Counted from the first letter of the stretch, positions 1-64,000 are shown. The stretch: 64,000 bases of DNA from Vermamoeba vermiformis (GCA_045837725.1 JBEWZL010000216.1:124001-188000), one strand, 5' to 3'. Numbers and translations: made by a program. Notes: generated by a model not told the origin, from the sequence alone.

Positions 1-78
1 AATTAATTCGATATGGCCGAAGTTTTCTTTCATTATTCGGTTGATCTTTTCTTGATCTTGTGGATCTCCAGTCTCCAT
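1..78 (-). CDS. Possible 5' end of a gene running off the window edge (METGDPQDQEKINRIMKENFGHIELI...)
   Basis: ATG at 78-76 with an open frame to position 1. No recognisable family. Confidence 0.3.
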   Translation of the reverse strand, partial: METGDPQDQEKINRIMKENFGHIELI

Positions 79-291
79 GTTGATGCTCGAGGTGGCTTAC
101 GAAAAAAATTAATATTATAGTAAGTAATTGTGCTGTTTCGCGTTAATTTATTCAAATAAACTGGTGGCTAAAAGAAATTGTGCTTTTTTTAAGGCTCTAA
201 CAAAAACGGTTGAAAAAAACGCGTACAATACTGGTCAAAATTTATTAATAATAAATTAATTAAATTCTTAGAAATTAATGGCGATAATATG

Positions 292-1113
292 TTAATCATC
301 CCGATCGTGTTTCCTTCTGTACTCTCCGGCAACTACTCGCTGGTTTTCTTCTTGTAACTGTTTAAGGTCGTCTGCTGCTGCCTTCTTTCGCTTTTTTGTA
401 GCTTTAATTTCGTCCAGGAGCCATTTAAATGCTAAATAATAAACGATTAGCGCTATTGAAGAGAAAATTGTACGCGGATGTACCTTCTTTGATATTTTTT
501 CCTGCTGTGGCTGAAATAATTTCAATATGACTATTTTCGAACGTCGAAAACTTCTGCTTGAAATGAGCGGCATCTCCTTTCTCCAGATCCGATTTGTTGC
601 CGAGGATCAAGATCGGAAGTTGTTCGTGAAGCCTAGATACAACGCCTTGCAACGCTTCATAGGAGGCACCAAAATTATTACTATCGCTAAGGTCTACCAT
701 CCATATTATGCCTTGCGCTTGAGCGAGCGCGTTGTCCCAGCAATTTCGTTGCGCATCCAATCCGCCTCCGCAATCCCAAAAGGAGATTTTTTTGCCAGAA
801 AAATTAAAATTGCCGTGATTGTACGTGGGGGCTATGAAATTTCTTATTAATAACAGATTTAACGAAGCTAGAATTTTTTAAAAATTGTCTAAAACGGCAT
901 CTAGAATTCCATAATAATTTGGACGCAAATAATTCAATTATTACGTACTAGGAGTATTAGGCACTTTAGCGTCATGATTTATCTTCGTATAGAACGTCGT
1001 TTTGCCGGATGCCGAAAGCCCCAACAACGCAACGGCTATTTCCTTCTCTATTTAATTAACCGTTAATACTAATATTAGGCGAGTAGATTTTTAATTTACG
1101 TACTCTTAATCAT
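292..1113 (-). CDS. Arf-like (Arl) small GTPase, 4 exons, with a charged C-terminal extension
   Basis: Spliced product has G1 GLSASGKTT, G3 WDCGGG, G4 NKSD and G5 SAT. It ends WLLDEIKATKKRKK...HDRDD*. Introns are canonical GT-AG. Confidence 0.85.
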
Positions 1114-1330
1114 GTTTGGTCGATGCTTTGCTGAACTCGGATACTATGGCACGACAGTTTTTTTTATCGTTTAAAATCGAAAAACAGAAATCAAGAATTC
1201 TAATTCTGGGTGGAATTGACAAGTATAGACAGGTACAGATAGTCAATTTACCTACATACCAAAAGTAGCAATTTCTCTCGGGCGATCTTTTGGAATTCTG
1301 GAGCGGAAGCTAAATTAGTTTTATTTTGCT

Positions 1331-3226
1331 TCATATCCTCCACCCGCGAATTAATTCGACTAATTCTTGCGGAAGAGAATTAATATTTTCATTAGGCATC
1401 TTTCTAGCCACATATTTTGCGACAATATTTTTAAGGCTCAGATCCGTTCCTATTCAAAAATACTCATTAACAACAATTATAACTATTTAAAATTATATCC
1501 TACGTACCATATACTTTAAGTGAGTATATATCAGTGCCACCAACGTTTCCAGACCAAATATATACAGTGTCGCCGTCGGCTACGGCAGAATGAACGGATC
1601 TAGCGTCAATAGTGACTGGCCCTAGAACTTCGACTTTCCTCCATATATTTCTTGCTATATAATATTATGTAAGTAAGAAGTGGCACAACGGATTCGCAAC
1701 AATAATACAGCTAACGAAGATCTTTTTTCGACATCCGAAATTTAAAATTTCATACCAAAGTCATATAAAGCTACTGAATCCAAAAAACTTCTTCCGCTGT
1801 AACCTCCGAATAAAACTCCGAGTAATTCTCCGTTGCCTGTCTTAACCAGCGTAAATGAATGGCCTGCGCAAGAGGACGGTTTGTTTTCTTCAGGAAAATT
1901 TATTCTGGTCCATTCATAACTCCCTAAAATAATAATTGTATTAATATATAAGACAATTTTGTACATTAATTAATATTCGCAAATAAAATTTGCACGAAAA
2001 AATTGGATCCGGATCTGATCCAGATCTTTTTCAAAATTTGACGTTGTAATACTTACTTATATTCAACGCATATAGATGGCTATAATATAGTCCCCTAGAA
2101 TATCCACCGTACATATAAATGTTATCTTCGTAATATATCAAGTATTCCATTGTTTGATTCTTCGGCATATCTCCAGTTGTTATAATTTGTGTTTTTTGTT
2201 TTGTAACTGCAAATGCAAAATATTAATATATAGACTATACTAATACTAATATATCAGTTGCGAGTGCTTGAAATTGCGACATAAGTAATATTTTGCGGTT
2301 ATGAAATTTCGCAAAAAAATTTAAAAGTCGTACCCAAATTTAGAATTGTTAATTCATCAAAGCAATGCTCATTTTCATCAATACTATTATGTAGTACATA
2401 TAATTCATCGCCAACAATCACCGCTGAAATTTTTGCTTTGCCTTCTAATGTTGCGATCTCTTCAATATGCGCTGTAGCTATTTCGTTCAAAAAATAAAAT
2501 CAGAATTATTTTCTAAGAATAATTTTCAATTAATTTTTGCAGTTTACGTGCCTGGATCGTACACCCACACTTGATGGTATTTTCCTCCCGTAATAATCAT
2601 TTTATCATTCCAAGCCTAACGAATAATAGTTAATCGCATATGACCTATTATATATTGTATATATTCGTACATTAACTGCGTGTGCATGCTGATATTTAAT
2701 GACGTCTGTATTATCGACCAGATCTTTCTCCCATCGACTCGTCGCTAAAAATTGTTAAGGTTAACCGTGATAATATATAGTGAATATGCCTTATACTCAC
2801 CGAAATTAAAGTGATGAATGCAGTCTTCTAATGCTTTACTGGATCCAACGCTCGTTCCGCCGACGATAAACATTTTATTCGCTTTCATGAATAATTAATT
2901 ACTGTTCAAAACTCTATAAACGAATAATGACATGTATAATATTGATGCGTACCTATAATACAGCTGCCGTGATAATCTCGTTCAATTGGCCGAGATCCTT
3001 CTGCGTGCAAAACGTTCCACTGAACAGCAACGGTCTTCAAGAAAAATAAAAAGAAACATTAGACGATATCGAGGATATTATATTAAGTATATAATCGTAA
3101 TTTAATAGTGAATCAAGTAAATAAAAATATTCAAAAGAAAAATCATAATCGCATCTAAAATGAGAAATTCAATTTCCTTACAGGTAGCTCTGAATCGCCT
3201 GTTTTTGTAGTATTAGCGTTTTCCAT
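1331..3226 (-). CDS. Kelch-repeat protein with a C-terminal BC-box/SOCS-like motif (KLHDC-type cullin adaptor), multi-exon
   Basis: Kelch segments RPIERDYHGSCII, PSSCAGHSFTLV..LFGGY and ARSVHSAV. C-terminus SLKNIVAKYVARK..INSLPQELVELIRGWRI*. Confidence 0.75.
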
Positions 3227-3337
3227 ATATTATAAAATAAATACTAATATTTAAATGTGCTTGTGTGGTCTTTGTAGGGCGAAACTAAAAAGATCTGCAA
3301 AAAAATCTTTTTTTTACCGCGATCAGACAGAACCACA
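3227..3337. promoter_or_regulatory. Short divergent (head-to-head) intergenic region, candidate bidirectional promoter
   Basis: Only 111 bp separate the inferred ATGs of the kelch gene (-) and the ADP-ribosylglycohydrolase gene (+). Confidence 0.45.
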
Positions 3338-5465
3338 ATGGAACTAAGAAACTCTTCATATAGAACCACACCGGAGCAGGCTATTGAGATTGCTAAATCC
3401 CAAGGCCACGTTTATCCATCAATTATTCCGGCTGAATCTGCTAAACCTCCTTGGTCTCACAATACAAAATTAAGCCGCGAAGAATTAATAGATAAAATTA
3501 AAGGAACTATTTATGGTAATAACAAGCCTCATTGCGGCAGTACCTCGCTGAAACAAATCCACAATTTTTCTGATTTTTTTTCCTATTCAGGAAATGCGAT
3601 TGGCGACGCAATTGGTTTATGTAAGATATTATAATACCTTTAATTTATATATGATGCAATTTTCGTTTATTAATCGTTTTTAAATCAGCCACCGAATTTT
3701 TGACTGGCGACGCCGTCAAAGAATTCTATAAAGACAAAGAGCTTAGTTATGCAAATATTATTGATGATTTTCATCGACAACGATGGCAAAAAGGCGATTG
3801 GACAGGTAATTACAAAATTAAAATTGAAATTTATCCGAATTATTTCTGATCGATTTTTAATTATTTTATTGTTGCAGATGATACCGATCAAATGATTCTT
3901 ATTATGGACAGTTTATTAGCTAACGCTGGGCATATTAATCCCCCCGATTTTGCTAAACGTCTTCGATTTTGGGTGGATCACGTACGGACTTGAAATTTCA
4001 ACTCAATTCGGCTAAAGATATGATACTAAACTTAATATATTAGGGATTTGCCGAGTTAGGAGATTTAGCTGGTCTTGGATTGGGTCTTACCGTCAAGGTA
4101 ACGCCCGTGCTCGAACGAATTTCCTTATTTGGCAATTTTACAAAATATTTCTTTCTCTGGGCCTACGATTAGCCTATTAATTATAATATAATTAATAATT
4201 ATAATAGAGAGTTGTTTCGCACAAACTTTTCACTGAAAATCCACACGCGGCTTCAGAAGAGATTTACAATGCTTCGGCAGGAAGAGCCGCTGCGAACGGT
4301 AATAATAATTGTTACTATCATAATAGTAGTAATTATGAGTATACTGATATTAATATTTGATAGGTGCTGTCATGAGAACGAGTATTTTGGGCATTCCGAA
4401 CTTTGGCGATCTGGATGCGGTCATTGAAAACACTACACAAATTGCCAAGGTACGAAACATTACTACTCCCTATGATTATAATTGATACAGGGCCATATAG
4501 TACTGTTATTCATGTACTTAACTCGTCAAAAAAGATTTTGAAGGATCCGAAAATTTTAACGCATCCACGGTACTTGTGGAGGTCGAATAAGACTTTGCAA
4601 TAATTTTTTCGTTTGTAGGTGACACATTTTGATCCGCGGTGTGTAGCTTCATGCATTTCCGGTACCACAGCCATAGCAATGATGTTGCAAGGCGAACATT
4701 GCAGCACGAAAGACGACATGAAAGTGATTTGCCACAAGTCCATTGAACTCGCGAGACAAGTGTTGAAAGAGCACAAAGAGCACGACAAAGAGTTCACTAA
4801 GTTGTGTAGCGTCAAAAAGATCAAAGAGTTGTACTTGGACGATAAGGATAGTATCGGGTAAGGGTCAAAACTTCCTGCAAAAAATTTTCACTGAAATAAC
4901 CGTTCAGTGAACCAAAATTAACTAATTTTTCTATTCACGAATTCTGCTAATATTCAACACTTTAATCAAATTTGCATATTCTGATTAATTTTTGCAGTTC
5001 GGCATTCGTTAATTGACTTTTTTGTTTGCAGATACACGTTCAAGTGCATCGCCTCAGGAATATTTGCAGTAAAATACGCTAAAGACTTCAAATCAGCGAT
5101 CACTGAACTCGTTATGGAGGCTGGTGACGCTGACACGTAAGATCATAGTAGATTCGTCATTTGTTTTTTTGACACGCAGCTAATCTGACAACTTTCCTTA
5201 TTTAGTAATGGTGCCATTGCTGGAGCTCTCGTTGGCTGTCGATTTGGATATTCGGTACGTAAAGTACTACGTGAGAACTATCATGACATTTTGACATTTT
5301 GACACTTTGACACTTTGCGAAGTACCTGTACGTGTTCCTGTACTAACGAGATACTTTTACTAAATTTAGAAATTACCGCACGATTGGTTAGAAGGCTTGG
5401 TCAATAAGAAGTGGCTTGATGCTCGTGTCGAGAAATTTTTGAAGTTGTTAGGACTTGGTGCATAA
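3338..5465 (+). CDS. ADP-ribosylglycohydrolase (ARH/DraG family), multi-exon
   Basis: Family motifs across exons: GNAIGDAIG, GDWTDDTDQM, AANGAVMR, THFDPRC, GDADTNGAIAGALVG. TAA at 5463-5465. Confidence 0.9.
5284..5317 (+). repeat. Intronic 8-mer tandem repeat (TGACAYTT)x4
   Basis: Reads tgacattt tgacattt tgacactt tgacactt tg. The same unit occurs on the minus strand at 55292-55320 and 55362-55380. Confidence 0.8.
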
Positions 5466-6809: not shown

Positions 6810-8027
6810 TTAATATCCCAAGTGTCTCAGCCACAACTTAACTTTCTTCGTGTGCGGACCTTTAATCTCAAGTTTGTTTGTTCTAATCTCCACGATGGAA
6901 TTAGTCAATTTTTCCAATTCGCTCTTCATTTCCTGCGAATACAATTGTTTAATTAATTACGTCAATAATTTTCAACGTGAAAAAGAATTAATAGTTCTTA
7001 ATAGCTTTATATCACTATTAATCTATTAAATAATATTAAAAAATATATAAAATATGGTCTATAGTGATTTGAGAGTGAAGGATATTCGGGGATGGGTTTA
7101 GCGGATCTGCGTGTCACGACAGATCTCGTGCCATGAAACTTACATTCAAATCGCCAGTGACCCTCCTGACAATAGTCAATATGTTCGAGCGACCGTTGCG
7201 AATGTCGCTGTAAACGGGCAACTGACCAGTGTTTGTTCGTTCGACTTTAAAGGGCAATGAAGTGGTGTTACCTAAATTGGAAATTTGAATCAGATCTGAA
7301 CTTGCCATCGATGGAAAAGCATTTATACATCATATAATAGACGATATTATATATAATATCGGCTATGTTCAAATAAACCAGTTTCTGCGAAGTGGTAAAG
7401 ATCCGGATGCTTGATTATTATGATCCAAAAAAAATAACCAAAATTGTATTGTGGCAGGCACATCTCGTGCATATTAATTATGTTAATATTATATACTTAC
7501 CAGCAGGAGGCATATGACCAGTAGGACTAGTGACTTTGAGCTCTTGTAACGGGTATTTCAAGGGTGAGGCTGTCTCGAACTTGGGAGTAAGGACTATAAC
7601 AAATAAATGCGTTATAATAATGGAATATATTATTAATAATAATAAGATGCTAGAATTATGCGTATTGGGTAAGAAATAAATTTTTGAACGAACGATCCAG
7701 ATTTCGTTTCGAAACTAGGACTATAATAATCGCCAAAAAATATATTTCTTCGTGCAAAATATATTATTAACATATTTAAACAATATTACGAAGGAAATGT
7801 GAATGAATAAACAGATATTAGGAAGATGCAAAAAACAAAATTCGAATTTAATTTAGGCTTTCTTCAATTGAATAATTATGCATACGATAATTAATACAGT
7901 ATTATATGCAATTATAATTAAATATAGGTGGTTATTAAAGCTTACCTCTGACACCAACAGTTTGAGTGGATGTTTCAGATCGTGAAAAGAATGAGCGACT
8001 TGCTCTAGCAACTAATGTTCGCAACAT
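6810..8027 (-). CDS. MRPL49: Mitochondrial ribosomal protein mL49 (Img2)
   Basis: LPFKVERTNTGQLPVYSDIRNGRSNILTIVRRVTGD and C-terminal LEIKGPHTKKVKLWLRHLGY*. The Arg/Ser-rich N-terminus MLRTLVARASRSFFSR resembles a mitochondrial presequence. Confidence 0.85.
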
Positions 8028-8214
8028 TGCACGATGTTGTTATATGTGTATAGTATAATATAAAAATAGCAATAATTATTGAACCAGACAAACTTTGACC
8101 GAGAGAAAAAAATCAGGGCTGAAATCACTCGCCGTTATTTATATTCGTCCCTAGTGGTCGATTGCCACGAGGTGTTATATATTGCTTATAATATAAGAAG
8201 AGGTCGATAGTATT

Positions 8215-10096
8215 ATGGACGTTGAGAGCTTATTAAAAGAGATCCCGGAGTTCCCGGACTACATCTCTTTGGAACAACACTTGGGTACCATTGTAGGCAC
8301 TTCAATTATATTTAGCTTAGTATTATACTGTAAGTAAATATATTTGCACGAGAAAAGATTGTTAAACCATCGTAAAGAAGCAAGATCCAGTTTTAGTATC
8401 AATTATTTTTACTAGCTGCATCATTTTTTCAACATTAATGCTATATTCATATTTGATTAATGCTATAGATTATTTATTATATTTTTTTGAATTATTCGGA
8501 GACACTTTAGCAGCGGATCGTGCCGTTTCGCAACGGTCACTTTGACGAGACACGAGATCCGCTTTAAAATTGCAATAATGCTACTTTAGGCATACACTAC
8601 TATTGTATTTATTATCATAATGGTATCTGGAAAACTTACCTTTGTTTTTTTTTTTGGATTTCAGACCTAAACCAACCCGATCGAAAACACAAGCACGAGC
8701 ATCACCCGCCTAAGAACCTCTCTATTCTCGAGCATATATTCGGCGTTGTTCTTTTAGTGTCGGTTTGTGCTAATGTTGCCTACAAGTACCTCTTAGGACC
8801 CAAATACCTGAGTTACATGTTGTACCCGTGCCACGTAATGTAAGTACCATTTTCTATTTTATATTTGCAATAATAAGACTCGCAAAACTATGTAGCTAGA
8901 GTAGATGCCGGCTTAATAATATATTACTGGTTATTGATCTTTAAATTATGAGTGATATTGTAAAGCAGATCTACAAAATGATGCTTGCTGGATCCCATTT
9001 TAACTTTTAACGAAACATTACTAGCGATACTATATCATATTAATATAACATAATACATCAATTCTCACTATATTATGCTTTATTTGAGCTATTCTAACGC
9101 ATCTTTTCTCGTGACCAGTTCGTGCAGTTTGTTGTACGTGTTGTACAGCAAGAATCATAAGAGAGCTGCTGCCGTGTGGAACATCATTGTATTTTATACA
9201 CATTTTACGTAAGTACATATCATATATTATAATACAACAGTATATTCAGTCGCGGTGCGATCGTTGGATTCGAATTTCGTAAATTTAGCGGATCCTCCTT
9301 TTTAAAGTTTCAATCCGTTAGATTATGTTATAATATAAAATGCGTGTAAAGTTTAAATATAGGTACTGACTTTACGATACTAGATTTTTGGCGTTAGTTT
9401 CACCGGACACGAGCGATCTGTTTTTCTTCATGCAAGTCCCGGTGTTCTGGACACAACATTATGCCTTATTATTATTACCTATGGTGATGATAATTACGAA
9501 TAGATATCCTTTGCAACGACCAACATTCGCTGCGGCGTTTTATTGGTACGTTTCGGCAGTCATCATAGCCGCCATGTTTTGCTTCTTGATCCACTTGCCA
9601 GTATCCATAATTTTGGGCGTCAATGTTAACTATGTCTACTGGCCTCCACCAGGTACACATTAATGAATTAGATCAATTGATTCGGTGCTGAGATTTCCAT
9701 AATCGGAAATACTTCCGAGCACATCCGCAACAATCAAAATTGTGCTGTTTTTTTGCTTAGTTAATCAAAATACCGTTAAATAATTACGTAGCTAATGTAT
9801 ATATGAAATAGGTCATATTGAGAACAGTCCTTTGTCAGGGCCTTTGTACCACGCCAAAATGTTCGGTGTTGTCGCCTTATTGAGCTGGATCACAGGGTAA
9901 TTTATACGGAAATGCCACCGCGGATGTATATTATTGTTAAATACTAATACTATTGTAATTTTATAATTATAGATTCCCTCTGGTCTGGGCTCTTCAACTG
10001 CTTCGAAAACTGCTGATCAAGTTGGGTCTCGTGCACGATGATTCTTTGACGGCAAAGGCAAAAAATACTGTAATGAAAATTAAGAAGGTCAAATAA
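8215..10096 (+). CDS. TMEM164-like multipass membrane protein
   Basis: Motifs YMLYPCHV, FWTQHYALLLLP and VNVNYVYWPP resemble the family's LNPCH, QH and VNLN segments. The C-terminal KKVK* fits a dilysine ER-retrieval signal. Head-to-head with the mL49 gene. Confidence 0.7.
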
Positions 10097-10351
10097 ATAG
10101 CACGAAACGCCTAACTGAAATGAATAGAGTTGGATCTAACGTAGCGAACGGTTTTTCGCTGTCATTTCAAACAGTTGCATAGAAATCTATATATAGCTAA
10201 ATATTTATCCTCAAATAAGACTATCGGGGTTTGTCTAAAATCCTCCCTATTACTGCCAACCGCGAAACCTTAAAATGTAGTAACATTCCGAAAAGCGTTC
10301 TTATTTTTTACTTATTACCTCAAAACCACAAATTAATATTAAGTATTGAAG

Positions 10352-10945
10352 ATGAAACTATTACATATTCTTTTGCTCCTAATTTTAGGAACTTGCTCGA
10401 TCTCAGCCGTTTGGACGTTCGGTCAGGAATGTGATCCGTGGAATCACCCTATACCCACCGGTGTAGCAACAAATGGCAACTGCATATATGACAGCTTGAA
10501 AGATAAATACTTGTTAACGACTTGCAAGTGGTACCAATTGGGCTACTATTTCAATTATGAATGTAACGACGCTGGATGCCATGACTGCAAGATGATTTAT
10601 AAGGCTCCTTTACACCAATGTTATTCGGGATATTATACGACGTGCCATGACGACGAACCGAATTATGGACAGCTCTTAAATACGAAGGCGATCGGAGCTA
10701 CATCCACAATGGCAGACAAAGCGTGCAAAACCGGTGTTGTTAAAGGTCGTGTAGTATTTGCCGCAAATCAGTGCGTGCAAACGAGCTCAATAACTTCTTG
10801 GAACGCCAGATGCAACGGATCACCGAATGTGGAGTTTGACTTTTGGGAGAACGGTTCCTGCAAAGGCAATCTGAAGTCTAATATTACACGCACCCCTGAC
10901 ACATGCGATGAATTCGGAAACTTTGGGTTCTGCGCTTATTACTAA
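10352..10945 (+). CDS. Intronless secreted cysteine-rich protein (197 aa)
   Basis: Signal peptide MKLLHILLLLILGTCSISA, then 14 Cys arranged in two similar modules. Confidence 0.75.
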   Translation: MKLLHILLLLILGTCSISAVWTFGQECDPWNHPIPTGVATNGNCIYDSLKDKYLLTTCKWYQLGYYFNYECNDAGCHDCKMIYKAPLHQCYSGYYTTCHDDEPNYGQLLNTKAIGATSTMADKACKTGVVKGRVVFAANQCVQTSSITSWNARCNGSPNVEFDFWENGSCKGNLKSNITRTPDTCDEFGNFGFCAYY

Positions 10946-11165
10946 TTAATAAAAAAATCGGATCTATCTTTGAAAATTAAAGTTATTGGATTAGTGTTAT
11001 CGTACGCGGAAACGAATTGGAATGTTGCGAATAGAATCAAGAGAAGCGGCATATTTGCCTTATTTAGACAGCAAAAAATTCAAGGGAAGGTTCTCCCAGA
11101 GAACATTCTCGACGGAGCAAAAGTCAAAAGAGCGAAATTTGTTATTTATGTTTAATAGTATCAAT

Positions 11166-13572: not shown

Positions 13573-13763
13573 TTAGCTGCGAATTACTGTAATAAATAAC
13601 GTTATTTTTCATCATAACTAACTGGTCGAAATTGTAACGTTGAATACGCATATTCTAAAGAATTTAAAAGCGATGATTCTCATTTACTAGAACTAAATTA
13701 GTTTTCCGTGTACGACGCCAAAAAATGCGAAAAGTTGGCAATTTGATTAATTTTTTTTACGTA

Positions 13764-46403: not shown

Positions 46404-46631
46404 CTATTGCGACTTCACTTCCTTTCTGTAGATCTTCTTGCCGGCAGTGATCATTTTCTCTTTGCTCCAATCATAAGCTTTCTTAGGGAATGTAGTTACG
46501 CATTCCCACGACACTTTGTCGAATTTTGCTTTCCACTCAGGAATGCAGAACAGCTTCTTCGTACATCCACTTTGTGGAACTTGTGTAGCCTCAGTACTCT
46601 TAGTATTCGGGTTGGTCGTATTATTTTCCAT
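46404..46631 (-). CDS. Hypothetical 75-aa protein
   Basis: ATG-initiated ORF with protein-like composition. No homology recognised. Confidence 0.35.
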   Translation of the reverse strand: MENNTTNPNTKSTEATQVPQSGCTKKLFCIPEWKAKFDKVSWECVTTFPKKAYDWSKEKMITAGKKIYRKEVKSQ

Positions 46632-47108
46632 CTGTGGGTAGTACTCTAAAGCCAGTTTTCAATGTAAGTGACAGTTTGCACGAGGCAGTTTTATGTTTTC
46701 CTCGTGAACTTAGGGCGAGTTTACGGGATGCAAACTAGCCTCACCAAGAGATTCATGCTCTTTACGATGAATTCACTATTTAATTAATTTGATACTCGGC
46801 AATGCATCTTTAGAACTTAGTGCTCCTATCACTGACTGGATCGCAGCAGGTGTTTTTTAAGGCTGCGCTGAGATTAAAAATATCAACGATGTTACGAACA
46901 ACCAACAGCCGCAATATTTACGAAAATTAATAGTATAAAATTGCCGAAGAAGCAGCCAGAGCGATTGACTAGTTTGTTCTAGAACCTATGTTCCCGAACA
47001 GTCAGCCGACGAATGTTCAACAGAAAAATCTAACTGGGGCCAATTTCTGTTTAGCAAATTTCGAGACATTAGAATACCACAGTTCTATTGTTATATTTAA
47101 TAGACAAC

Positions 47109-49741: not shown

Positions 49742-49945
49742 ACTGATTCTTTTGTTCAACGAATGATAAATAAACTTACTGTTTGAGCAATAATGTCAAA
49801 GCAAATAATTTAACGAGATCTCCAGTTCCTGGGAAGCACGTGGTCCGTCCGTTATGATTATTTCGCCTAATTTTGCATTTTTATTGTGTGCGGTGCCAAC
49901 CAACATGACATTACTGTAAAGAAGGTACATAATAATAGATACATA

Positions 49946-51875: not shown

Positions 51876-53876
51876 ATGGGAGAAGAGCCTCAGACTATTG
51901 TAATCGACAACGGATCATGTAAGTCCAAATTTTGTGTTCAATTCAATTTTTTTATTCTGTAATTATTAATCACAATAAATTATTATTGATATTTTTGCGT
52001 CATGACGCACAGAATGAACAATAAATTTAAAATTCCCCATCCCGAATAATTTAAGAATTCCAAAATTACGCCATCGAATGCCGTATATATCAGCAATATT
52101 ATTCTATACTTATGTCGTTATTATAATTAATTTTACGGCTTATTGGTCTATATTATTAATAAAATCTTGATCTAACGCCTTTATTTTGCAGGCACATTGA
52201 AGGCCGGTTTTGCTGGCGATGATGCTCCTCGCTCTGTATTTCCTAATATAGTAGGAAGACCACGACAAATCCCCGTAATGGTCGGGTTAGGCCAGCGCGA
52301 CTCTTGTAAGATCAGATTCGAAAATTTAAAATCTTGAAGCATTAACAATATGGCCTTAGATGTCGGTGATGAAGCACAATCACAAAGGGGACTATCAACT
52401 CTAAAATATCCTATTAACCACGGTAATTTCAAGCTTATAATTTAGATCCGGATCCGTTGCGAAGTAGTGACTTTACGCTAACTTTTATCTATTACTAGGC
52501 ATCGTTAATAACTGGGACGATATGGAAAAGATATGGCACCACACCTTCTATAATGAGCTTAGAATAGCACCTGAAGAACATTCCATTATTATTACAGAAC
52601 CCGTCTTGAACCCGAAGGCCAACCGCGAAAAAATGGCGATGATCTTGTTCGAAACTTTCGCTGTTCCTGCCATTAATATATCTATTGGTGGTGTGCTAGC
52701 ACTTTATTCCGCTGGTCGTTCTACTGGCCTTGTCGTCGAGTCAGGTAGGTCCTATCAAATTTTTCACTGAACGGTCAATATTTGGATCCGTTAAAGCTGA
52801 TTCCGGATTGGTCAAATGCTTAATTTATTATTTTTTTAATAATTTCTTAGCAAAATTAACAATTTAAACTCGTTCATATTTTGATCGATTTGGATTGCGT
52901 GGAGTGATGTTCCGAGGAACCAATCTCAATACCCAGGAAAGATTAAGGACCTAATCATACTTATTCTTAATATAGGTGACGGTGTTACATATACCATGCC
53001 TGTTTCTGAAGGACGAGCTGTTTCTAGCGCCATCAATCGAATTGATCTAGGCGGAAGAGATTTGACCACGCACTTGGTTCGATTGCTCACTGAACGAGGG
53101 TAAGTAATCTTTGCAACAATTTTTATCAAATTTATTATTAAGAAGCTGAAAACCGATCACTATGGGAAATTTGGCGGTTCACTGAACGAAATTTCTAGAT
53201 CTGATCAGTTTTTTTTCAGTGATTGAGACTAGTCTAACCTTTCTAAATATAGATACTACTTTGATACGACAGCAGACTTTGAGTGCGTGCGAGACATTAA
53301 AGAAAAGCTCAGTTACACCGCGTTTGATTTCGAACAAGATCTGCAATTGGCGCTGTGCTCTGCTTCGCTTGAAAAGTCTTATGAATTGCCTGATTGCAAT
53401 GTAATTACTATTGGTGAGTATATTTATATAGCTTTTATTTCCTTAAATGGAAAAGACAGCGTAGATATTTTTTTTCACGGATCTAATTTTTCTTTTCCTT
53501 TTTAGGCGACGAAAGATTCCGATGTACCGAGCCGATGTTCAAACCTTCCTTATTAGGCAAAGAACTTATGGGCGTTCATGAAATGGTCTACGACACCATT
53601 CAAAAAGTTGACACGGATCTGCGTCGAGACATGCAAGGCAATATTGTCTTGTCTGGCGGCAACACTATGATCACCGGATTTGCAGATCGTTTGCACAAAG
53701 AACTTACAGATTTATTGCCCGCCGGATCCATGTTAAGAATCGTTGCCCCACCTGAACGAAAATACTCGGCTTGGATCGGCGGATCGATCTTGGGCTCGTT
53801 ATCGACTATGCGTTATATGACTAAGGAAGAGTACGATGAGAACGGTCCTACTTATACTCACCAAAAATTCTTTTAG
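51876..53876 (+). CDS. Divergent actin-like protein 2
   Basis: [41 protein letters not shown] and [15 protein letters not shown]. Shares several intron positions with the upstream copy. Confidence 0.9.
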
Positions 53877-54033: not shown

Positions 54034-57000
54034 CTATTGTTTATTCGATTCTGGCCAGTCTGGTAAAACCTTTCTAGTTTGCTGTGCGCCTTGCTTTTCG
54101 GTTCGCTTTTCTTCAATATGCTGTTCGTCTTCTTCAACAACTCCTCTTGCAAGTGAATTTAGGACGCTTAACGGATAAAATTTCGGTTTCACTGAGGCAA
54201 TAAGTTAGTTACGATAGCAGTGAGATTAATAAGTATTATAGACGCACAATAGGCCTCGATTGTTGGCAACATGTCAATCGGCGCTTTTCCTCGGTTATTT
54301 TTTACTGAAACCGACGCTCCTTTCTGAGAAGTAAAAAGTTGTCAGATTCAGGATCCAACGTGTTTGTGAAAGCGGATTAACCCTTTAAACTATAAGTGTT
54401 TGTTATTGACTTACCTTAAGCAGCTGAGTAATTAAAATGTCGCCGTTAGGATATTTACTGCATAGGAGTTGCAAAGGAGTGTTTCCGTCGGAGTCTTGGC
54501 AAGTCACTGAAGCACCAAGTTCGATGAGCAATCGTGCGTAACCTAAAGAAATTCGAGGAATTTCTGATATGCTAATGAATAGTAGCCGTCAGTCACTATA
54601 TATGAATAAGATATGAGGTGACTTACGCTACACTTAAGGGAGAACGAGTGGTCGCAGGATTGACGTTCAAACGGAATCCAGTAACAAATTTTCCAAAGCA
54701 ACTGAAGCTCAACGACTTGATCGCGTAATGAATTGATGTATTTCCAAAATCATCAACATTATTAAACGCTTCTATAATCTTTTTTCGTTCTTCCAACGAC
54801 TTTTTCAAAACGGCGTTGTGGATGTACTTGAAACTCGTGTCGCAGTTGATTAAATGACCGACAGATCGTCCCATGTTGTCAAGATGCGATAAATCTAAAA
54901 GATACTATTAACACTTTGTTACTAACGTTGTTGTTTAGACTTACCAATTTTGGTCACGTGATCTTCGAGCAGTACTCTGATGAGTCCTTGATTGTTAGTC
55001 AACAGTGCGTTGTGTAGCGGCGTCAGGCCTGCCTTGCTAACATGTACGACATTGGCTCCTCTCTTCAACTGGCAAGCCAAATCCTGAGTTGTGGGCATAT
55101 GTTGAGTGAATAACGCTGTTTCGCCGTGAACATTTTCAACGTTAATGTCCTCGAACGAATCTGGAATTTCACTCCAGTAATCTCTTGCAATATGAAGAAT
55201 TGTGTTATTATGAGAATCAGTGTCCTTTAAATTGCCTCCTATAAGATAATACGATGAGTGATACTTTCAATCGAGAGTACGAAAATGACGCGTGTCAAGT
55301 GTCAAAATGTCAAAATGTCATTCGACGCAATTAGAGTGCTGAGGTGAGTAACTAATTCAAAGTGTCAAAATGTCAAAATGTGTAAACACTAACCAATTGT
55401 TAAGACTTTCCATCCATTTCTCGGGTTTGCACTGGCAATCTCCATAAACGGAGTTGTCACAATAGCGTTTTGAAGATCTTCTTTGCGGAAATTGATGTCC
55501 GCTTTGTGCTTCAAAAGCATCTTCACTATCGGCGTGCTAACGTTACGGTCAGGCAAATGATGTGCCTTCCAAAGTGCGTGATCGATACCAGGTCCATAAA
55601 GATTCGGCTAATAAAACATCAATAAAGTCATTATTGTAAAAAAAAATTTTGAAGTACGTACATCCGCGCCAGCTTCTAAAAGGGATCGAACAATTGCTGG
55701 AGAAGGGTTCTGATCCAAAACTCGAAGCAATGGAGTATAGCCTTCATCGTCCATGTGATTGACGTCAAAACCAAATTCTGAAATGATTTGTGGCAGCGAA
55801 TCCACTGTGTCCTTATCCTGCGAGAGAATTGCCTTAAATAACAACGTTTTGTTTCCGCTTAGAGGCGCGTAGATATCATAGCCGTAGTCAACGAGTGCCT
55901 ATTGTAGCAATGAGAATTTAATTTTTAGTGGCGGATCTGATCTGTAACTTACATTCAATATTGCGGGAGTAAAATCCCACGGAATATTTTTTTGAAATTG
56001 AGTCATAAAATTAGATCCTGTGGCAATTAAGTTGTTCAAGAGAACTGCTAACTCTTTAGAAGACTCGATTTTTCTAAATAATAGCGAGATCCAGGTGTCA
56101 TCTTGTATGCAGTAACCAGCCTCGAGAAACACTAATGATATTTGTAATTGAGTAATTAGTGATAATGGGATTAGGTACTAACGGTTAACTAAGTTTTCAT
56201 CGCTTCTGTTGGCCACTAAATTGTATACATTACAGCCACTAAATAATTGTCAGATCCAGCGACAACGATCAATTTTTGCCTTACTTGTCTGCCTTCACTT
56301 CCAAATCGATATTCAGCGGCAATAAAATTTCTAGGAATAAATCACTGGGACGTTCTTTAAATATGATGTGGATAGGCATAACTCCGTTGTTATTCGGCGC
56401 GTGCAACAAATCACGAAAGTCATCCAGATCTGCAAATCTCTGCTTTGCAATCTCGAATAATCCGTCCGTTTTGTCTTCTGCCATCAAATGGAACACTATA
56501 ATACGTATGAAGTGTCATTAGCAATTCACTGAAAAGATTTCATGAAAGCAACTTACGAGTATCGCCGGTCGAAGTACGCATGGAAAAATCAACGTCGGCT
56601 TTACTTATGATGTGCTTTACGACATTGTTATCCCTCAATGAAGAATAGCACTCAAAGAATGTTCGGCCATTAATCTATAAGGTACAATTAATTAATCAGG
56701 GTCAAATTTTGCCGATCAAGATCGGATCTGTCTTACCATCAAATTAACATCAAGTCCCTTCGCTAATAAATAGTCCATAAATTGTTCATCGTGCATATTT
56801 TCGTCTAATATGAACGGATGAGTGCTCACGAAATTGGAATGTGGATCATGGCGAGCGTCAATGCACCGATCAAATTCTTTTGGAAACTTGTACGAGCCTA
56901 TTTCGTCTTCTAATGCAGTATAACCATTATCTAAGAGGAATCTGGCTGCTTTTAATCTTCTCCAGACAACGGCACGGCCAAATAATGACTGAAATAAAAA

Positions 57001-58065
57001 GTTTTAGATTTAGATCCAACAGTTTTTTAACTATGGCAATTACCGAAGTTTTGTATCCATAGAAGCAATATGGCTTGTTATTTTTTTTGAATTGGGCGGC
57101 GAATTCGTTCAGCTTTTCGTTATAGATCAAGTTAAACAGATCGATCACAACGTGAACGTGTAATTTTTTAGCTTGGAGGCGTAAAGCTTCAATTGTAAGG
57201 GCCTTATCTTCACAGTTTGGAATCGGTAAGTACATCTCCTATAAAATTATGCGCTTAGTTAGTTGAAACGTCAGAGATCTACATCCTAACCTCCAGATTC
57301 GGCGCAATTTCCTTGCACGACGGAATAATGCTATTCCAATCTGAAAACTTAGTGAAATTAACAGATGAAATAAATATCTTTCGGAGATTTGTCAATATCG
57401 TGTTAGGTGGCAACTGCGCGGTTAATTTGTAAGCTGCTAGCGTTTCTAGGTTCGGGAAACATTCGGCAAATTCTGCTAACGACCTCGGGACTATTTTAAT
57501 ATGTTAGTTAGATGCTTCAAAACAATTATTGCACTTACCCGTGCCACATCTGTAATGGATGACGTTTGTACGGGGAGTCATTTGGGGAGGGATTGATAAT
57601 ACGATCGTATTGTCAGTGTCTATAAACGTTCTTGCGCTGTTGATTGCGTTAACAAAGCTGATTACTTTGTTGGAGTAAAGTATCGACGAAAGATCCAGTT
57701 GCGAGATGTGACATTGAAATCCTATCCAGGAAGGATTTACTTTTTTGGCATTGGATGCATAATCTGAAAGCGATAGAACGTCGACAGGGCATTGTACGAC
57801 CAGCGCTCTTGGAAAAAAATGTCAACAAAATAAAAAATTGCAATTATTAATTGTTTAATTGTTCTAGTTACCGCCATAATTTGGACACTCGGGATATTTT
57901 TATTCTCTTTTGAAATGGAATATAACCAAGAATTATTACTTGTATCTCTGCTGGCAACTCGTCAAAATATTCTAACCCTCTCGAATCCAATACTTCTGAA
58001 CTGATAACGCTGCGGTATGTAACCTCCGCAGCTTTGGTTTTATATGTGCCCTTTCCTCTTGGCAT
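54034..58065 (-). CDS. F-box + ankyrin-repeat protein, multi-exon
   Basis: N-terminal F-box FDELPAEIQVIILGYIPFQKRIKISRVSKLWR. Ankyrin repeats DDEGYTPLL, GLTPLHNAL, DDFGNTSIHYA and DSDGNTPLQL. Confidence 0.82.
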
Positions 58066-58379
58066 TGTTGCTGCAGGCGCAAAATTTAAATGAAAATTGC
58101 AGTTTTGGCGGCAAGTTTTGATCAGATCTTTTATGACACGTGCGACAGAATTTCTTAAGATAAAAATCAATTAACAAAATATTAGTATAACCATTATAAG
58201 AAATTTTTTTACAAGCGATATCAGGAATTAAGCTTTGAAATACCAAGTACCGCCAATTACGATCCAAGATCAATTCGTCAGAAACTGACACTTTAAAACA
58301 AAATAAAAGCGAGCATTAATAACGAATTGATTTTTCAATATTTTAAAGATTGAATTTAAAAATACAAACAGGTGTTTTT

Positions 58380-61300
58380 TTAGTGATTATTTTTCTTTGC
58401 CGCAGTTTGTTCTTCTTTGATTTTATCCGCTAAAAAGTATAAATATCAGCATATTAATCCTCAATAATAAAATAACTCGTATTCTCTTTACCTTTAATGC
58501 TCAAGTGCTTCGATAACTTCTTTCGACGCGTTTTTTCAAGCAGAGCAGATCCTTCGGATAACGGCTCTTCGGATGTTTTGGACTCCTAAATACCGTCATT
58601 AGAATACGCTAGCCAGCACTGTCCATAGTAAAAAAAGCTAGATCCGGATCTGCTTCAACAGTTGGATGTACACGTTGAGCAGAGATTAAAGCGAAGTAAT
58701 ATATTATAATATGTTGTTACTTACTGCGAGAGATGTCTTAACTGGCTCGCTTGAAGTAGATCCGGTCGAAGAACGCAGATCTCCAACTTCGGATGAACTA
58801 TCCGAAATGCCATCATTGGTGTTCTTTCTCGACAAGCCCTTACGTCCAGAAATACTTCCGCTAGTCTTACGTGAGAGCGTAATGACAATGTTTGACTCGG
58901 GATTGCCGCTAGAGCGAAGACCGCTTGGACTTGGTGGTGGCTCGAGGTTCTTCGGCGACGGTTTTTTCAAGATCTCGTCACAAGTCTTCAACAACTCACT
59001 GTCAAACATCTCGGTCTTGTGGTCTATGAACAATTGAACGATTCTAAAAAGTTGTACAGTAGTTAGTTTCGTTGTGTAACGACTCAAAAACTATTGCGTT
59101 GACCAAATTTTGACCAACACATTTTAGCTTCCTTAATGAATGAAACGTACCTGTTAACTCTAGTGACATTAAACTGGGTATCTTTAGTCTCTTCAACGGG
59201 TTTCAATAAGTTTGAAGCGAAGACAATGGCCAAGTTCGCTGAGTGCATGTGGCTCTTTTCTGACGATAGACTAATCTAAAAAAACAATCAAATATTAATA
59301 ATAGTCCTTATTTATACGTATAATGCCGATAAAACGTACCTTTGATAAGAAATGAGCGAGGAAGGCTAAATTTCGAATGTTGTCCTCTGGCAAAGTATGT
59401 ACAAGCTTCTTGACGTTAGCAATCGCTTGTTTCTCATCGTTATCGTCTATTATGTATCAAGTTAGTACATTATAAAGCAAACTTTCAAAATAAACTTAAA
59501 TTTTTCAACGAGATTGCGCGAGATTTAATTGAAAGAACAGTCTAGCCGCTAATCTCCAATACTCAGATTAATCTACTTACCAGCTTTCATGAACTCGGGG
59601 TACAGTTTGTAAGTCAATAATGGCTCGGGCAGCTCACGGAAAAATTCTTTCATCATCGAGGCTGAAGTGTGAGGCCCAGCCATAATCAACGTACTAACGT
59701 TACCCTCGCCTCTATCAAAGATAGCCTTAGTCTCTTTAATATGCTGAGCGTTGCCGCTGACGCGGAAAAGGCCTTCAGTTTCGGGGTTGGTTCCGTCAAG
59801 CAAGAACTCGGTGCAGCACTTGACAACGAATGGAATGCCATCAATTGCATCATCGCGACGACACAGCTCTGAAAGCTCAAGGCCAAAGACTAGTAGAGCA
59901 CATAATTAGCATTAGAAACTGATAGCTTCTATTACTCTACGTACCTCGTCCTTCAAGAGATGTCTGCTTCATGGCAGCTTGAATCAACGGCGACAGCTCT
60001 TTACGCTTTTGTGGGTTCGGCATTGCTACGAGAACCTTCTTGCCCTTCGTTGTGAACTCGAAGGAATCTAAATCAAAGTGTTAGTTGCATCCAAACGCGT
60101 ACAAATGAGCGTCAAAGGTGCGTGGTCACACGCGTCTTTCAGGATATTTTTATACGTACCAGCATCAACCTCTTTCATCGTGGCATCCTTAAACTCAATA
60201 TTCATCTTGTGTTTATACGAGATGGACTTAGTCTCAGGCTCTTCGGTGACTTTGGCAATGATCATCATGTCCGACAACAGGAAGTACGTGCGCAGCTTTT
60301 TCTTCATTAAAAGGTCTCCACGGTTGATCAACTTCCTTCGGCTCTTTACTGACATCTAAATGTAATGGAGTTAACCACAATTAACAACCTAAAAAATATT
60401 TGGTACTTACGGGAATTTGATAGCCGTTCAGTTTTCTGTTAATCTCAAGTAGTGCAACACTATTTTTATCTCGTTAGTCATCGAATTCTTGATATTTAGG
60501 CAAATAGACTTACGTGTCGGCAGAACGTTCTTGTATCGAATCAAGATTCTTTTGTAACCTTCGCATGGACTCCAACAAGTCTTTCTCATTGTTTACTACT
60601 TTAAAGAACTCCTCTACGTTGAAAAACTTGTAGTCTTGCAATTGTTCTCGTGCAGGGCTGGCTTCGATCATTTGCTATAGGTACGTGTTAGCGACCGATA
60701 AAACATCGTTACTGTATCAAAGGAACGTACCTTAATGTACAAAATATAGTTTGGAATTTGAACGAATGGTGCACGCAACAAATCTTCTAAGTTGATTGCC
60801 TTAAAGTCGCTATCTTCTTTCGACTGCACGGCGAAAAAGTTAGTCGGATCTAGAACATGTCAACTACTAGTGTACACATACCTGATTAAGGAAGTCATTC
60901 AAAGTTTGGTTATTGACTTTAGACCGCGTCAGCAGCTCAATGGAATAATTTCCGTGCTGAACATATGTCTCGTAGATATTGTGGAACTTTGGTAACATGA
61001 CGCGGAACACGGAACTCAACGACGGTGATTTTGCTTGTTGTGAATATGATTGAAGCTCCAAATACATCACTCGATGGAGTTCTGATAGTTCTTCGATGTT
61101 TTGGAAAATCAAGCTCACATCTACCGGATCAATTTTTGTTTGACCGACTTTGGAACGGTAGATCAGCGGTTTGTAGTAGAACTTTAAGGCCATAAATATT
61201 AGTCCTAAAAATAATACAATGTCATAATAGTACTTACCGCAACAATATTCTGTAATCGATCAAAGTACTCTTTTTCGGCTTTCATGGCTTGACCGAAGAT

Positions 61301-63601
61301 CTTGTTTCGCGGTTGCATTAAACCTGAAATCGACGTTAGATTAATGTCATAATATTATGAACTATCATAATACTTACGATAAACTTCTAAGTTCTTTTTC
61401 ACTAAGAAACTTCTTGCAAAGCTCTGAATAACAACAACGTTCTGGATCTTCTTTTGATACTCAATATGCTTTGTAGCAGTAGTAATAATATCGTTCTAAT
61501 AAATAAAAAATCGATTAGAACTATTGGTACCGCAAATAACGCTAAAAAAAGCATGCGTTACTCACCAACTTTTCGACACGTGCCAAGCCTTGCATTCTCT
61601 TATTATCTTGCGAGTACTTGACGACTGTATCGAAGACGACACGCTGTTCGTCTGATGGAATGCCAAGCACTTCAAAAGCTGTGCTAAGGATGTGATGCAT
61701 CGATCGATCGTCGCTCTAACCACGATAAAAATTAGTCCCAAGATGGTCAGAGCAGCGAAGAATTGCAAAGATTGACGATATTGTCGTGTAATACAGTACT
61801 TATACGAGCAAATTAATATATTTGGAAACTATTACGGGAAAATAACGGAACTTCATAAAATAATTCCGAATTCAATTTCCGAGAGATGGCTCGGTAATTA
61901 AGTCATGTATATTATGCGCAGGTAATTAAGATTGAAATTATCGAATTAACTCGTCCATAAATGAATCACTAAGCAGACTGAACTTACCCATTCAGTTTGA
62001 AGTCGCTTTTGTTCTTCAGCTTCTTCAGGCGTTTTAGCCGCAGGAAAATGAATGGTACTAATAATTAACAAATATTAATTCATGAAATTAACATAGAAAG
62101 CGCGTCTCTATTTTTAGCGAATTTTTTCATTAATTTCTTTTGTTTTTGACGTGATGCTAAGACAGCGCTGTATATAATCATCAATCGCTTACCAATCATC
62201 GAGCTGTTTTTTGGCACGCTCTCCAGATCTATAGAATAAGTTGTTAAGTCATAAAGTCAAAACACGTAGTTGGGTGAACCAGCGGATCTACAACAACGAG
62301 CTCCGTGTTCCGATCGTGTTATAGCCTCGGAGTGCACTTATTATTGTTGTAGGTCCCAAGCCTTTATATATGGTAGGAAAAAATAACAGTCACCTACATG
62401 GATTAACAAACTTATGCAAAACTTTGGCATAAGTTTTGCAATGCGTAAATGTGCGGTCAACACTGGTCAACCACCAGAAATTTGGCTGGTCGTTGCACGT
62501 TTTGTTGCGAGTCGCGCATCGAGATGAGCAACACCAAGCAACACGTTAAGTTATATTTTTGAAAAAATTACTGTTACCAGCTTCGTGGATGAACCAATAG
62601 TCACTGTCACATTATGAAGATCTTGTTGGTGACAGGCAACCGGATTTGGCTTATTTAAATTCGTGTTAGTATTCTCTCACTTCCTTAGACACCAACAACT
62701 TATTTTATTTCATTTTTTATTATTTTTGATGGTGTAGAATAGTGCTGTAATGCAGACCGCCATTCGTGCGTGACACGGACAGATGAGCTAAATTTTCCCC
62801 CCGTAAATCGCTACACAGCCCTCTTTTTTCATATTTCAATAACATATTGCTTGTATAATATGCCAATGAGGAATATTAATTGAAATTGTAGACTTTTTGA
62901 CCATGAAGTTTTGATCGAGATCGTTTTTTTTGATTATTATTCGAAAAATTAGAAAACCACCACAATAGTCAAATTCATCATCAGTTCCAATATATTTGTA
63001 ATTTGTATGTATAGTCCATCGTATGGGAGGGTTCAATAAGTAATGCGTGCCCCTGGAGCAAAATTACGTAGTCCGCTGGATCTCGGGATCGTGGGATGCA
63101 TCTCCCGGGCTCAACATGTCTGTGTCCGGTAAATATTTAGACAATTTTCCCAGCATCAAAGCATGCTTGTGCACGTCGAGAATGCCAAGACAGTGCCTTG
63201 CATCTTGGGCAAAGCAGCAAAATTAAATTTCATTGTTGCAGATCTGAATCTCACCACGAGATGATTTTTAAACAAAACAAATTATAGTAAACACAATTAT
63301 ATATTGCATAAGACGCTAATAAATTGTCAAATACACTAAAGGTGCAGGTGCAGGCAAAAACGAATTAGGTTTGGCAAGATTGCAAAAGTTTCGCAAAATT
63401 TTTGCCAATCGTTTTGTTTTTTTGTCAATTTCTGTGGTTGCGAAACTTTTGCCAAAGTTTTGCATAAGTTTGTTGATCCACGTAGGTGACCGTTATTTTT
63501 TCCTACCTTATATATTAAGTGATGTTGAACGTAACCACTTACCCTCCCATTGCTCCGTCTTCCTTCGAACCGCGTCGCTTGTCTTTGGATCCAGTTGAAC
63601 T
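58380..63601 (-). CDS. IQ + RhoGEF (DH) + PH + RhoGAP protein; 5' end not resolved and may extend beyond the window
   Basis: IQSFARSFLVKK; DH (AEKEYFDRL, LIFQNIEEL, LLRAPFVQIPNY); PH (RRKLINRGDL, YFLLSD); GAP (EGLFRVSG, KEFFRELPEPLL, MHSANLAIVF). Exon 63601-63543 splices in phase 2 to the exon at about 62228. Confidence 0.85.
62365..63514. mobile_element. Non-autonomous DNA transposon / MITE-like element with ~77-bp terminal inverted repeats
   Basis: 62365-62441 is the reverse complement of 63438-63514 with 6 mismatches. Both ends finish in TATATA, compatible with a TA target duplication. It lies within an intron of the RhoGEF/GAP gene. Confidence 0.85.
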
Positions 63602-64000
63602 CTATTAAGCGCAGGATTAGAATCTCGTTATTAAGCGTGATTAACAATGCGTGTATAATAAAATTCAATCGTTAAAGAGCTGTTTCATTGCAACTGCCAG
63701 TTTGTGTAATGGGCCCAAATCTGCCACATGTTTGTTGCAAGTTGTTCCTGCTTTACGTGCATAGTATTTCGAATGCTATTATGTTATATTTTTTCTTATT
63801 ATTTGCTCATTTTATCATTACGATTGTTTGTTCGAATACACAGCGAAACAATTTAATCCGGAATAAAACACGCTGTAAAATATCAAAATTGCAAAATAAT
63901 GGCCATTTAATTAATTATTAATAGAATATATCATATTTAGGCCTTAAACATGCCCTAAAATTAAATTTGACCAGATTTACAGTGCAACGCTGTTACATAA

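Follow-up and report, generated by a model that had tools for sequence, protein, structure and literature searches.

The closest described relatives of the pattern analysed here are the nucleosome-size compositional waves of Trichomonas vaginalis, Giardia and Yarrowia (Chen et al. 2008). According to the accessible part of PMC2577358, these sequence periodicities lie at the nucleosome repeat, with 120.9 nt in Trichomonas (matched by a ladder obtained with micrococcal nuclease, MNase), about 132 nt in Giardia and about 156 nt in Yarrowia, and they are strongest at codon position 3. In that part of the source, ApA/TpT are given as the strongest contributors in Trichomonas and TpA as among the weakest, no specific word is reported, and differences in both damage and repair between linker and core are proposed as the cause; for yeast, nucleosome-protected DNA is described as GC-richer than linker DNA. 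Here we describe a periodicity of a related kind in a single stretch of 64 kb from Vermamoeba vermiformis (GCA_045837725.1 JBEWZL010000216.1:124001-188000; hereafter the window, with positions counted from 1 to 64,000), where the tetranucleotide GATC recurs about every 141 bp and alternates with TA-rich DNA. A first-pass annotation of the window had drawn attention to these sites.

In prasinophytes and other algae, Dnmt5 reportedly places CG methylation at linkers, as Huff and Zilberman are said to have described in 2014. The GATC sites of bacterial Dam are not spaced on a lattice of nucleosome size. In protists, N6-methyladenine (6mA) confined to linkers and located at ApT is widespread, and in Trichomonas it is periodic along the whole gene body (accessible part of PMC12695648). 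For Tetrahymena, the accessible part of PMC5714169 states that 3.8% of the methylated adenines lie in GATC.

The window resembles the first of these systems in showing a compositional wave of nucleosome size (shorter than 147 bp in the metamonads), in carrying this wave on coding sequence mainly at codon positions 3 and 1, and in its gene-scale arrays. It differs in its period of 141 bp, which is visible in raw coordinates without gene alignment, in that the wave crosses introns, and in its carriers, namely the exact word GATC together with TA steps. That is, nucleosome-size periodicities are usually faint and need averaging over thousands of aligned genes, whereas here 64 kb of raw sequence suffice and one exact palindrome carries the signal. 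With the linker 6mA of AMT1/MTA1c in ciliates, Chlamydomonas, early fungi and protists, the window would share a periodic mark placed once per linker, and GATC contains ApT; but there the periodicity is that of a methyl mark on generic ApT, mostly near the 5' ends of genes, whereas in the window the periodicity resides in the sequence word as such, and the remaining ApT contexts are not in phase with it. The Dnmt5 algae offer the likeness of a mark confined to the short linkers of tight arrays and leaving a footprint in the sequence; however, the autocorrelation of CG in the window is flat (0.90-1.06 at every lag), so that CG is not itself periodic, and it is only weakly in phase with GATC (0.529). 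The comparison with Dnmt5 made in the first-pass annotation is not supported. Exact GATC specificity is a trait of bacterial Dam, but the window is a eukaryotic nuclear locus with introns.

In the literature searched, which lacked most subscription journals and supplements, we came across no account of a eukaryotic genome with GATC enriched at a regular period, none of a sequence periodicity of 140-142 bp and none of genomic GATC enrichment in organisms of the AMT1/MTA1c type. On our best reading, the GATC-specific component is what is new, while nucleosome-size sequence periodicity as such is of an already known kind.

Periodicity of GATC

The window (GC content 37.7%) contains 425 GATC sites, where base composition predicts 220.8 and 200 dinucleotide-preserving shuffles yield 230.6±13.7 (maximum 275). 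Under a second-order Markov model, which predicts 246 sites, no other 4-mer is as over-represented as GATC (z 11.4). Distances between GATC sites form a comb with teeth at about 142, 285, 425, 567, 705, 848, 985 and 1125 bp. Counted per 10-bp bin, pairs number 52 and 60 at 131-150 bp, 43, 41 and 47 at 271-300 bp, 49 and 46 at 411-430 bp, and 44, 51 and 46 at 551-580 bp, with a uniform expectation of 28.2 and troughs of 11-20. Over eight harmonics, 1113 pairs were in phase versus 556 in anti-phase (null difference -2.5±39.9).

The local spectral power of GATC reached 5.11 at 141.0 bp, the maximum across 60-400 bp. None of the 200 shuffles and none of 500 random placements reached this value; their maxima were 1.16 and 1.69 within the band, and 1.87 and 2.12 over the full 60-400 bp range. 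The harmonic centres of GATC run from 143 bp to 1407 bp for the tenth harmonic (1411 bp for the tenth harmonic of ATA/TAT), which gives a period of 141±1 bp. Among nearest-neighbour gaps, 46 of 424 measured 130-150 bp in silico. The first-pass annotation had picked its series by eye and had estimated a period of about 140-145 bp. All 20 of the strict RGATCY sites it listed (R, purine; Y, pyrimidine) lie exactly where it placed them, the six looser or out-of-register sites that we checked lie within 1 bp, and the spectral peak stands far above the null maxima of both kinds. Hence, the GATC lattice is real and strong, and no artefact of picking by eye.

Sequence context and specificity

GATC has a partner in antiphase. 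The TA-step words TATA, ATAT, AATA, ATTA and ATAA peak at 139.5-141 bp with powers above that of GATC, so both components fall within the 120-200 nt range of the compositional periodicities described by Chen et al. 2008. Within 30 bp of GATC, the density of TATA/ATAT falls to 0.10-0.53x, whereas 50-80 bp away it rises to 1.75-1.83x, and this oscillation persists beyond 450 bp; the autocorrelation of TATA/ATAT itself swings from 0.39 to 2.35. In 47 of 63 overlapping 2-kb segments, GATC and ATA/TAT are offset by 50-71 bp. The local power of ATA/TAT amounts to 20-50 at 138-141 bp in the quarters of the window, and ten outside eukaryotic contigs gave peaks of 3.4-6.5 at scattered periods.

A-tracts behave in the opposite way to TA steps and are in phase with GATC (AAAA 0.535, AAATTT 0.618). 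Both AAAA and TTTT are raised 10-30 bp 5' of GATC (1.13-1.44x), and 3' of it TTTT alone is clearly raised (1.28x at 10-20 bp; other bins 0.84-1.09), with neither strand favoured. The GATC zone has a GC content of 40.8% versus 36.1% in the TA-rich zone, and CG density is 1.48x within 10 bp of GATC. We found no 10-bp rotational phasing around GATC, and a weak bump at 10-13 bp in the WW/SS (A or T/G or C dinucleotide) autocorrelation. From the shapes of the autocorrelations, the zones may be roughly 30 bp (GATC) and roughly 55 bp (TA) wide.

To judge GATC against other words independently of its own positions, we used a lattice fitted on ATA/TAT density only (453 points, mean gap 141.19 bp) and defined the central share as the fraction of a word that falls into the central 4 of 14 bins between TA-rich peaks (29% if uniform). 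GATC had a central share of 56%. GTAC, CATG, CTAG, AGCT, ACGT, TGCA and four non-palindromic permutations had 20-34%, the exceptions being TCGA, of the same composition, with 40%, and CCGG, of another composition, with 46%. The one-mismatch variants of GATC had 18-32%, that is, the specificity is for the exact word as in Dam, with the caveat that YGGATG is also in phase. Among 106 TA-free 4-mers (median 31%), GATC ranked first. Its density was 0.0110/bp in the central 40%. Elsewhere it was 0.0037/bp, in agreement with the 0.0036/bp expected from the shuffles, so that about 189 of the approximately 194 excess GATC fall in the central zone. At least one central GATC is present in 212 of the 452 lattice intervals.

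Block shuffles, in which bases were permuted inside 10-, 20- or 30-bp blocks so that the local composition wave was preserved, left 211-216 GATC with in-phase/anti-phase counts of 204/204, 198/198 and 197/197, respectively. Both the excess and the periodicity thus vanish. ApT contexts were scored against the GATC lattice at lags above 35 bp (baseline 0.498), and GATC alone among the contexts measured was in phase (0.687). AATC (0.525), CATC (0.515), CATG (0.501), AATT (0.493) and AATG (0.474) stayed near the baseline, while contexts containing ATA/TAT were in anti-phase, with TATA lowest at 0.27. A general ApT preference, as expected for AMT1-type marks, was therefore not observed in the periodic zone. 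The analogy to ApT 6mA that had been drawn in the first-pass annotation fits loosely: GATC contains ApT, but the other ApT contexts do not follow the lattice.

The sites had also been described as mostly RGATCY, which overstates the case: 161 of the 425 are of this form, and every flank class is periodic (in-phase/anti-phase 863/381 for RGATCY, 517/301 for YGATCR and 846/430 for mixed flanks). The flanks carry at most 0.09 bit of information per position. Pyrimidine-purine (YR) steps are preferred 5' of GATC (CG 3.04x, CA 1.9x, TG 1.55x), and the most over-represented 6-mer is CGGATC (92 versus 15.7 expected). A second, weaker word, GGATG, is in phase throughout the window, especially as YGGATG: CGGATG occurs at 35 sites (2.24x expectation) with a central share of 0.60, and TGGATG has 0.56, whereas AGATG (0.25) and CAGATG (0.21) are not in phase. 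GATC also forms 39 multiplet clusters, mostly with 5-6 bp spacing, all in unique sequence and none of them a repeated element. The periodicity stays when each cluster is counted once (833/457 in-phase/anti-phase). The periodic signal is specific to exact GATC, which fits a factor that reads GATC about once per repeat.

The lattice is not a by-product of the encoded proteins. Open reading frames (ORFs) of at least 100 codons and the rest of the sequence hardly differ in the central share of GATC (0.55 and 0.57, respectively), and in 12 homology-supported ORFs GATC occurs in all three reading frames (34/18/7). In the same 12 ORFs, the AT content of the zones differs by 0.085, 0.017 and 0.080 at codon positions 1, 2 and 3, respectively; as in the systems of Chen et al. 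2008, the less constrained positions carry the wave. In the second of two divergent actin-like genes, the RGATCY sites at 53197, 53337, 53479 and 53615 lie in intron, exon, intron and exon, in this order. Exons were taken there from tblastn matches to the EukProt transcript P0036 (52960-53418 and 53502-53873), and the intron at 53101-53244 was set from the frame map, with the P0036 match 52960-53418 running across it. Nor do repeats account for the lattice. Tandem Repeats Finder (TRF) detected one 8-bp microsatellite as the sole array, and non-self matches in a self-BLAST search covered 6271 of the 64,000 bp in 30 high-scoring segment pairs (HSPs), the 12 longest of which, those listed, all join four kinase paralogues. 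By neither method did we find similarity between successive 141-bp units, as a satellite would show. Thus the lattice is an overlay at the DNA level that is independent of coding and repeats, and the statement of the first-pass annotation that neither coding constraint nor paralogy explains the register is borne out.

Chromatin models

We consider it fairly probable that the window carries a positioning code on the scale of chromatin, in which GATC is a linker mark read by a GATC-specific factor. Every ~141 bp, a short zone of roughly 30 bp alternates with a broader one of roughly 55 bp. The short zone holds exact GATC, enriched about 3-fold, often in multiplets and with YR flanks, and A- or T-tracts 10-30 bp away; the broad zone is rich in flexible TA steps (ATA/TAT, TATA, ATATTA) and almost free of GATC, and the pattern extends alike over exons, introns and intergenic DNA. 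The ~141-bp repeat would then be that of the nucleosome or chromatin unit in very tightly packed arrays, with the GATC zone most likely forming the short linker and the nucleosome edges, and the TA-step zone lying around the dyad. The earlier proposal of a sequence-encoded phasing system is in part supported, by a nucleosome-size lattice that runs on regardless of exon/intron borders and by an exact-GATC specificity that fits a reader acting once per repeat. A period below the 147-bp core, which the first-pass annotation regarded as a sign of unusual chromatin, has precedents in Trichomonas and Giardia with their 120.9 nt and about 132 nt (accessible part of PMC2577358).

Selection may keep GATC in place through a GATC-specific factor that reads it once per unit, most likely an N6-adenine methyltransferase whose mark would disfavour wrapping and thereby fix the array. 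If GATC is read once per repeat, adenine methylation appears to be the most natural candidate, since linker 6mA is common in protists and 6mA in GATC occurs in Tetrahymena. Because a generic ApT preference was not found, such a methylating enzyme would need GATC specificity. The fuller proposal, that a GATC adenine methyltransferase of Dam-like specificity marks one linker per ~141-bp repeat and that selection keeps the lattice genome-wide, is one that we put forward tentatively and hold to be less likely than its negation. If it were true, cutting naked DNA at GATC would yield a nucleosome-like ladder. The window itself encodes no methyltransferase domain in the 50 ORFs searched against Pfam (49 stop-to-stop ORFs of at least 110 amino acids (aa), minus 25613-25978 (-), plus 40023-41699 (-) and 44622-45539 (+)). 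The strength of the signal and its confinement to one exact palindrome open a long-standing question to direct test, namely to what extent nucleosome arrays are set by sequence rather than by remodellers, and whether the code includes a DNA mark. At ~141 bp, such a nucleosome repeat would be shorter than the canonical 147-bp core and would join the small number of known examples of extremely tight chromatin.

Several points weigh against the linker-mark code. The evidence base is these 64 kb, and nucleosomes, the linker assignment and methylation are what we infer. The higher GC content of the GATC zone (40.8% versus 36.1%) points to a position of GATC near the dyad, and we found no 10-bp rotational signal from which the dyad could be placed. 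With AATC, CATC, CATG and AATT not in phase, the pattern is not accounted for by methylation of ApT in general. The in-phase YGGATG fits a tolerant DNA-binding protein better than a strict GATC enzyme. Finally, GATC is conserved at 76 of 118 positions among the kinase paralogues (0.64; all-4-mer mean 0.50), which is no higher than CATG (0.69) or CATC (0.70), so that selection on the sites is not demonstrated.

The orientation of the two zones could also be the opposite one, with the TA-rich zone as linker and GATC at or near the dyad in GC-richer wrapped DNA, where it would be a positioning or recognition element rather than a linker mark. We regard this as a possibility to be taken seriously, albeit a minority one. 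Besides the GC content of the zones, which would agree with the GC-richer nucleosomal DNA of yeast (accessible part of PMC2577358), it draws on the CpG words that co-localise with the GATC zone (central share 0.46 for CCGG and 0.40 for TCGA; CG 1.48x within 10 bp). It conflicts with the in-phase A-tracts that flank GATC at 10-30 bp and with a TA zone made of flexible TA steps rather than A-tracts. A-tracts are stiff and classically excluded from nucleosome cores. Moreover, a TA zone of ~55 bp, if it were the linker, would leave ~85 bp wrapped. We favour the linker over the dyad as the place of GATC, with some reserve, because A-tracts lie beside GATC, the other zone is built from TA steps and not from A-tracts, and the GATC zone is the narrower one.

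It is rather unlikely, in our view, that the reader is an abundant architectural protein that binds GATC as a linker-histone substitute or barrier and sets the array without DNA methylation. A palindromic motif with YR flanks (CG 3.04x, CA 1.9x, TG 1.55x), a tolerated variant (YGGATG in phase, AGATG not), the common multiplets at 5-6 bp spacing and the absence of other ApT contexts from the phase would all suit such a protein, but a 4-bp core with flanks of at most 0.09 bit per position is very short for specific binding, and GATC is present in only 212 of 452 lattice intervals. To our knowledge, there is no precedent for a protein that binds a specific sequence at every nucleosome, once each, throughout a genome.

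More doubtful still is a passive mutational footprint of positioned nucleosomes, in which damage and repair differ between linker and core and both the wave and the GATC excess are functionless. This mechanism has been proposed for the Trichomonas periodicity (accessible part of PMC2577358), the wave rides on codon positions 1 and 3, which are under less constraint, and the conservation of GATC among the paralogues does not clearly exceed that of other 4-mers. However, a context-free bias cannot lift one palindrome 3-fold while its permutations and one-mismatch neighbours stay at background, and a compositional bias alone would survive local shuffles, which the GATC signal does not. Such a bias would not create multiplets like four GATC in 21 bp either, and the AT-rich phase is specifically rich in TA steps, with A-tracts in the opposite phase. 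For the window, a repeat artefact, be it a satellite-derived 141-bp unit or the coding periodicity of leucine-rich repeats (LRR) or ankyrin, is ruled out and of negligible probability by TRF, the ORF split and self-BLAST: the encoded proteins do include four kinase paralogues and repeats of the LRR, ankyrin and EGF-like types, but the sole tandem array is the 8-bp microsatellite, the 12 longest HSPs among the 6271 bp of self-matches all fall in the kinase genes, and the lattice is equally strong outside long ORFs and crosses introns.

Arrays, genes and surrounding DNA

The amplitude of the lattice drops to half after about 5-6 repeats, and its phase breaks at ~5.5k, 12.2-14k, 41.5-41.75k, 43.75-44.25k, 51.5-51.75k, 54.5-56.2k and 59.2-60.5k (Table 1). 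Several of these breaks lie at gene borders, as judged by eye. Apparently intergenic are those at 41.5-41.75k (5' end of the LRR gene), at 51.5-51.75k (between the actin-like genes) and at 54.5-56.2k. The phase of the lattice differs between actin-like genes 1 and 2, and the slowly drifting stretch of ~9 kb spans an unassigned ORF, the Peptidase_S28 gene and actin-like gene 1. The lattice appears to be organised as gene-sized arrays with a phase that changes between genes. The earlier claim that the register crosses both borders and unrelated genes is true of exon/intron borders and of the slow drift across genes in 42000..51250, but there is not one lattice for the whole window. Two stretches, 43500-44250 and 59250-60000, are nearly free of GATC (weighted count 0.5-1.2 versus 4-10 elsewhere). 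Both coincide with breaks in phase, and they may represent promoters or DNA between genes.

Table 1. Lattice features and genes of the window (local resultants refer to GATC).
Feature	Position	Strand	Basis or remark
Two-component 141-bp lattice, GATC zone alternating with ATA/TAT-rich zone	1..64000	.	Spectra, cross-correlation, ATA/TAT lattice
Long coherent GATC array	1..5250	.	Local resultant 0.5-0.91, near-constant phase; holds 2841, 2993, 3291
GATC quadruplet, four GATC within 21 bp, unique sequence	2006..2027	.	One of 39 clusters
Coherent array	7000..8750	.	Resultant 0.62-0.85
Coherent array over 5' part of MatE gene	10250..12000	.	Local resultant, Pfam
Weak or phase-break region (example)	12250..14000	.	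Resultant 0.08-0.34; two lattices not anti-phase in 12-14k
Four paralogous TKL-type protein kinase genes	19140-20235, 21518-23064, 24500-26095, 32179-33304	+	DNA identity 73-81%
GATC series 38955, 39254, 39390, (39527)	38955..39531	.	Resultant 0.59-0.68
Intronless 576-aa RNI-type leucine-rich-repeat ORF (P0001)	40023-41753	-	Weak relatives only
Slow-drift stretch, ~9 kb	42000..51250	.	Phase 90 to 130 bp at T=141.2
Divergent actin-like genes 1 and 2, in tandem, each with several introns	~49900-51561 and ~52100-53876	+
Four RGATCY sites, gaps 140/142/136, actin-like gene 2	53197..53620	.	Sites checked, tblastn exons
Further example of weak or broken phase, downstream of actin-like gene 2	54500..56250	.	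Local resultant, two-lattice phase comparison
Seven-site series over 15 repeats	56426..58552	.	Resultant 0.58-0.86 from 56.5k to 58.25k

The genes of the window have short exons. By Pfam and homology, they encode an Arf/Ras-like GTPase, MatE, TKL-type protein kinases, SPRY, Peptidase_S28, RhoGEF, RhoGAP, ankyrin, EGF-like and RNI-type LRR domains as well as the two tandem actin-like proteins. Because of these exon-split genes and this domain set, the window is a eukaryotic nuclear locus with introns of the spliceosomal type. In keeping with a 5' splice site of the GTAAGT type, the over-represented 6-mers include GTAAGT/ACTTAC and GGTAAG/CTTACC. CTAG (0.56x) and CATG (0.72x) are under-represented across the window relative to base composition. 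Scans of the 64 kb for tRNAs and with Rfam gave no matches.

In the four kinase paralogues, several GATC are common to the aligned columns 831, 979, 1118, 1306, 1456 and 1624. Since these shared columns are ~140-150 columns apart, the GATC lattice appears to have been inherited along with the duplications of the kinase genes. The MatE protein has its best relative on a contig from JGI (77% identity). Exon 7 of actin-like gene 2 shares ~48-59% identity with actins among the matches listed and 81% with the EukProt transcript P0036. The best relative of the LRR protein is distant (E 2.7e-15, 26% identity), and the whole protein matched nothing above threshold in Pfam.

A scan of genome contigs for DNA of relatives gave no match, and a metagenome scan with the LRR protein as query gave no loci. 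With the actin-like exon, the metagenome scan returned 53 loci, none of which exceeds 64% identity over its best matched segment; those that match the whole exon reach at most 59%. We used these loci solely as outside controls. Two metagenome contigs, L001 (1-11902) and L002 (1-16715), come from one organism (99.8% identical over 10 kb). They have a GC content of 0.39 and GATC at 1.44x expectation, with fewer GATC pairs below ~130 bp and more at 140-170 bp. The GATC period in these two contigs was non-significant (71 of 300 nulls reached the observed value), and their ATA/TAT bump near 140 bp lay inside the noise of other contigs. Small shares of the words of the window occur in water and aquifer metagenome runs, which is no evidence of habitat.

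From three RNA sequencing runs with the same species label, 59, 53 and 71 reads mapped to the window. Their matches lie within 40001-60000, chiefly at 47.3-48.7k. Nearly all of the mapped reads are 95-99% alike and most aligned partly, and the runs probably derive from a diverged strain or species.

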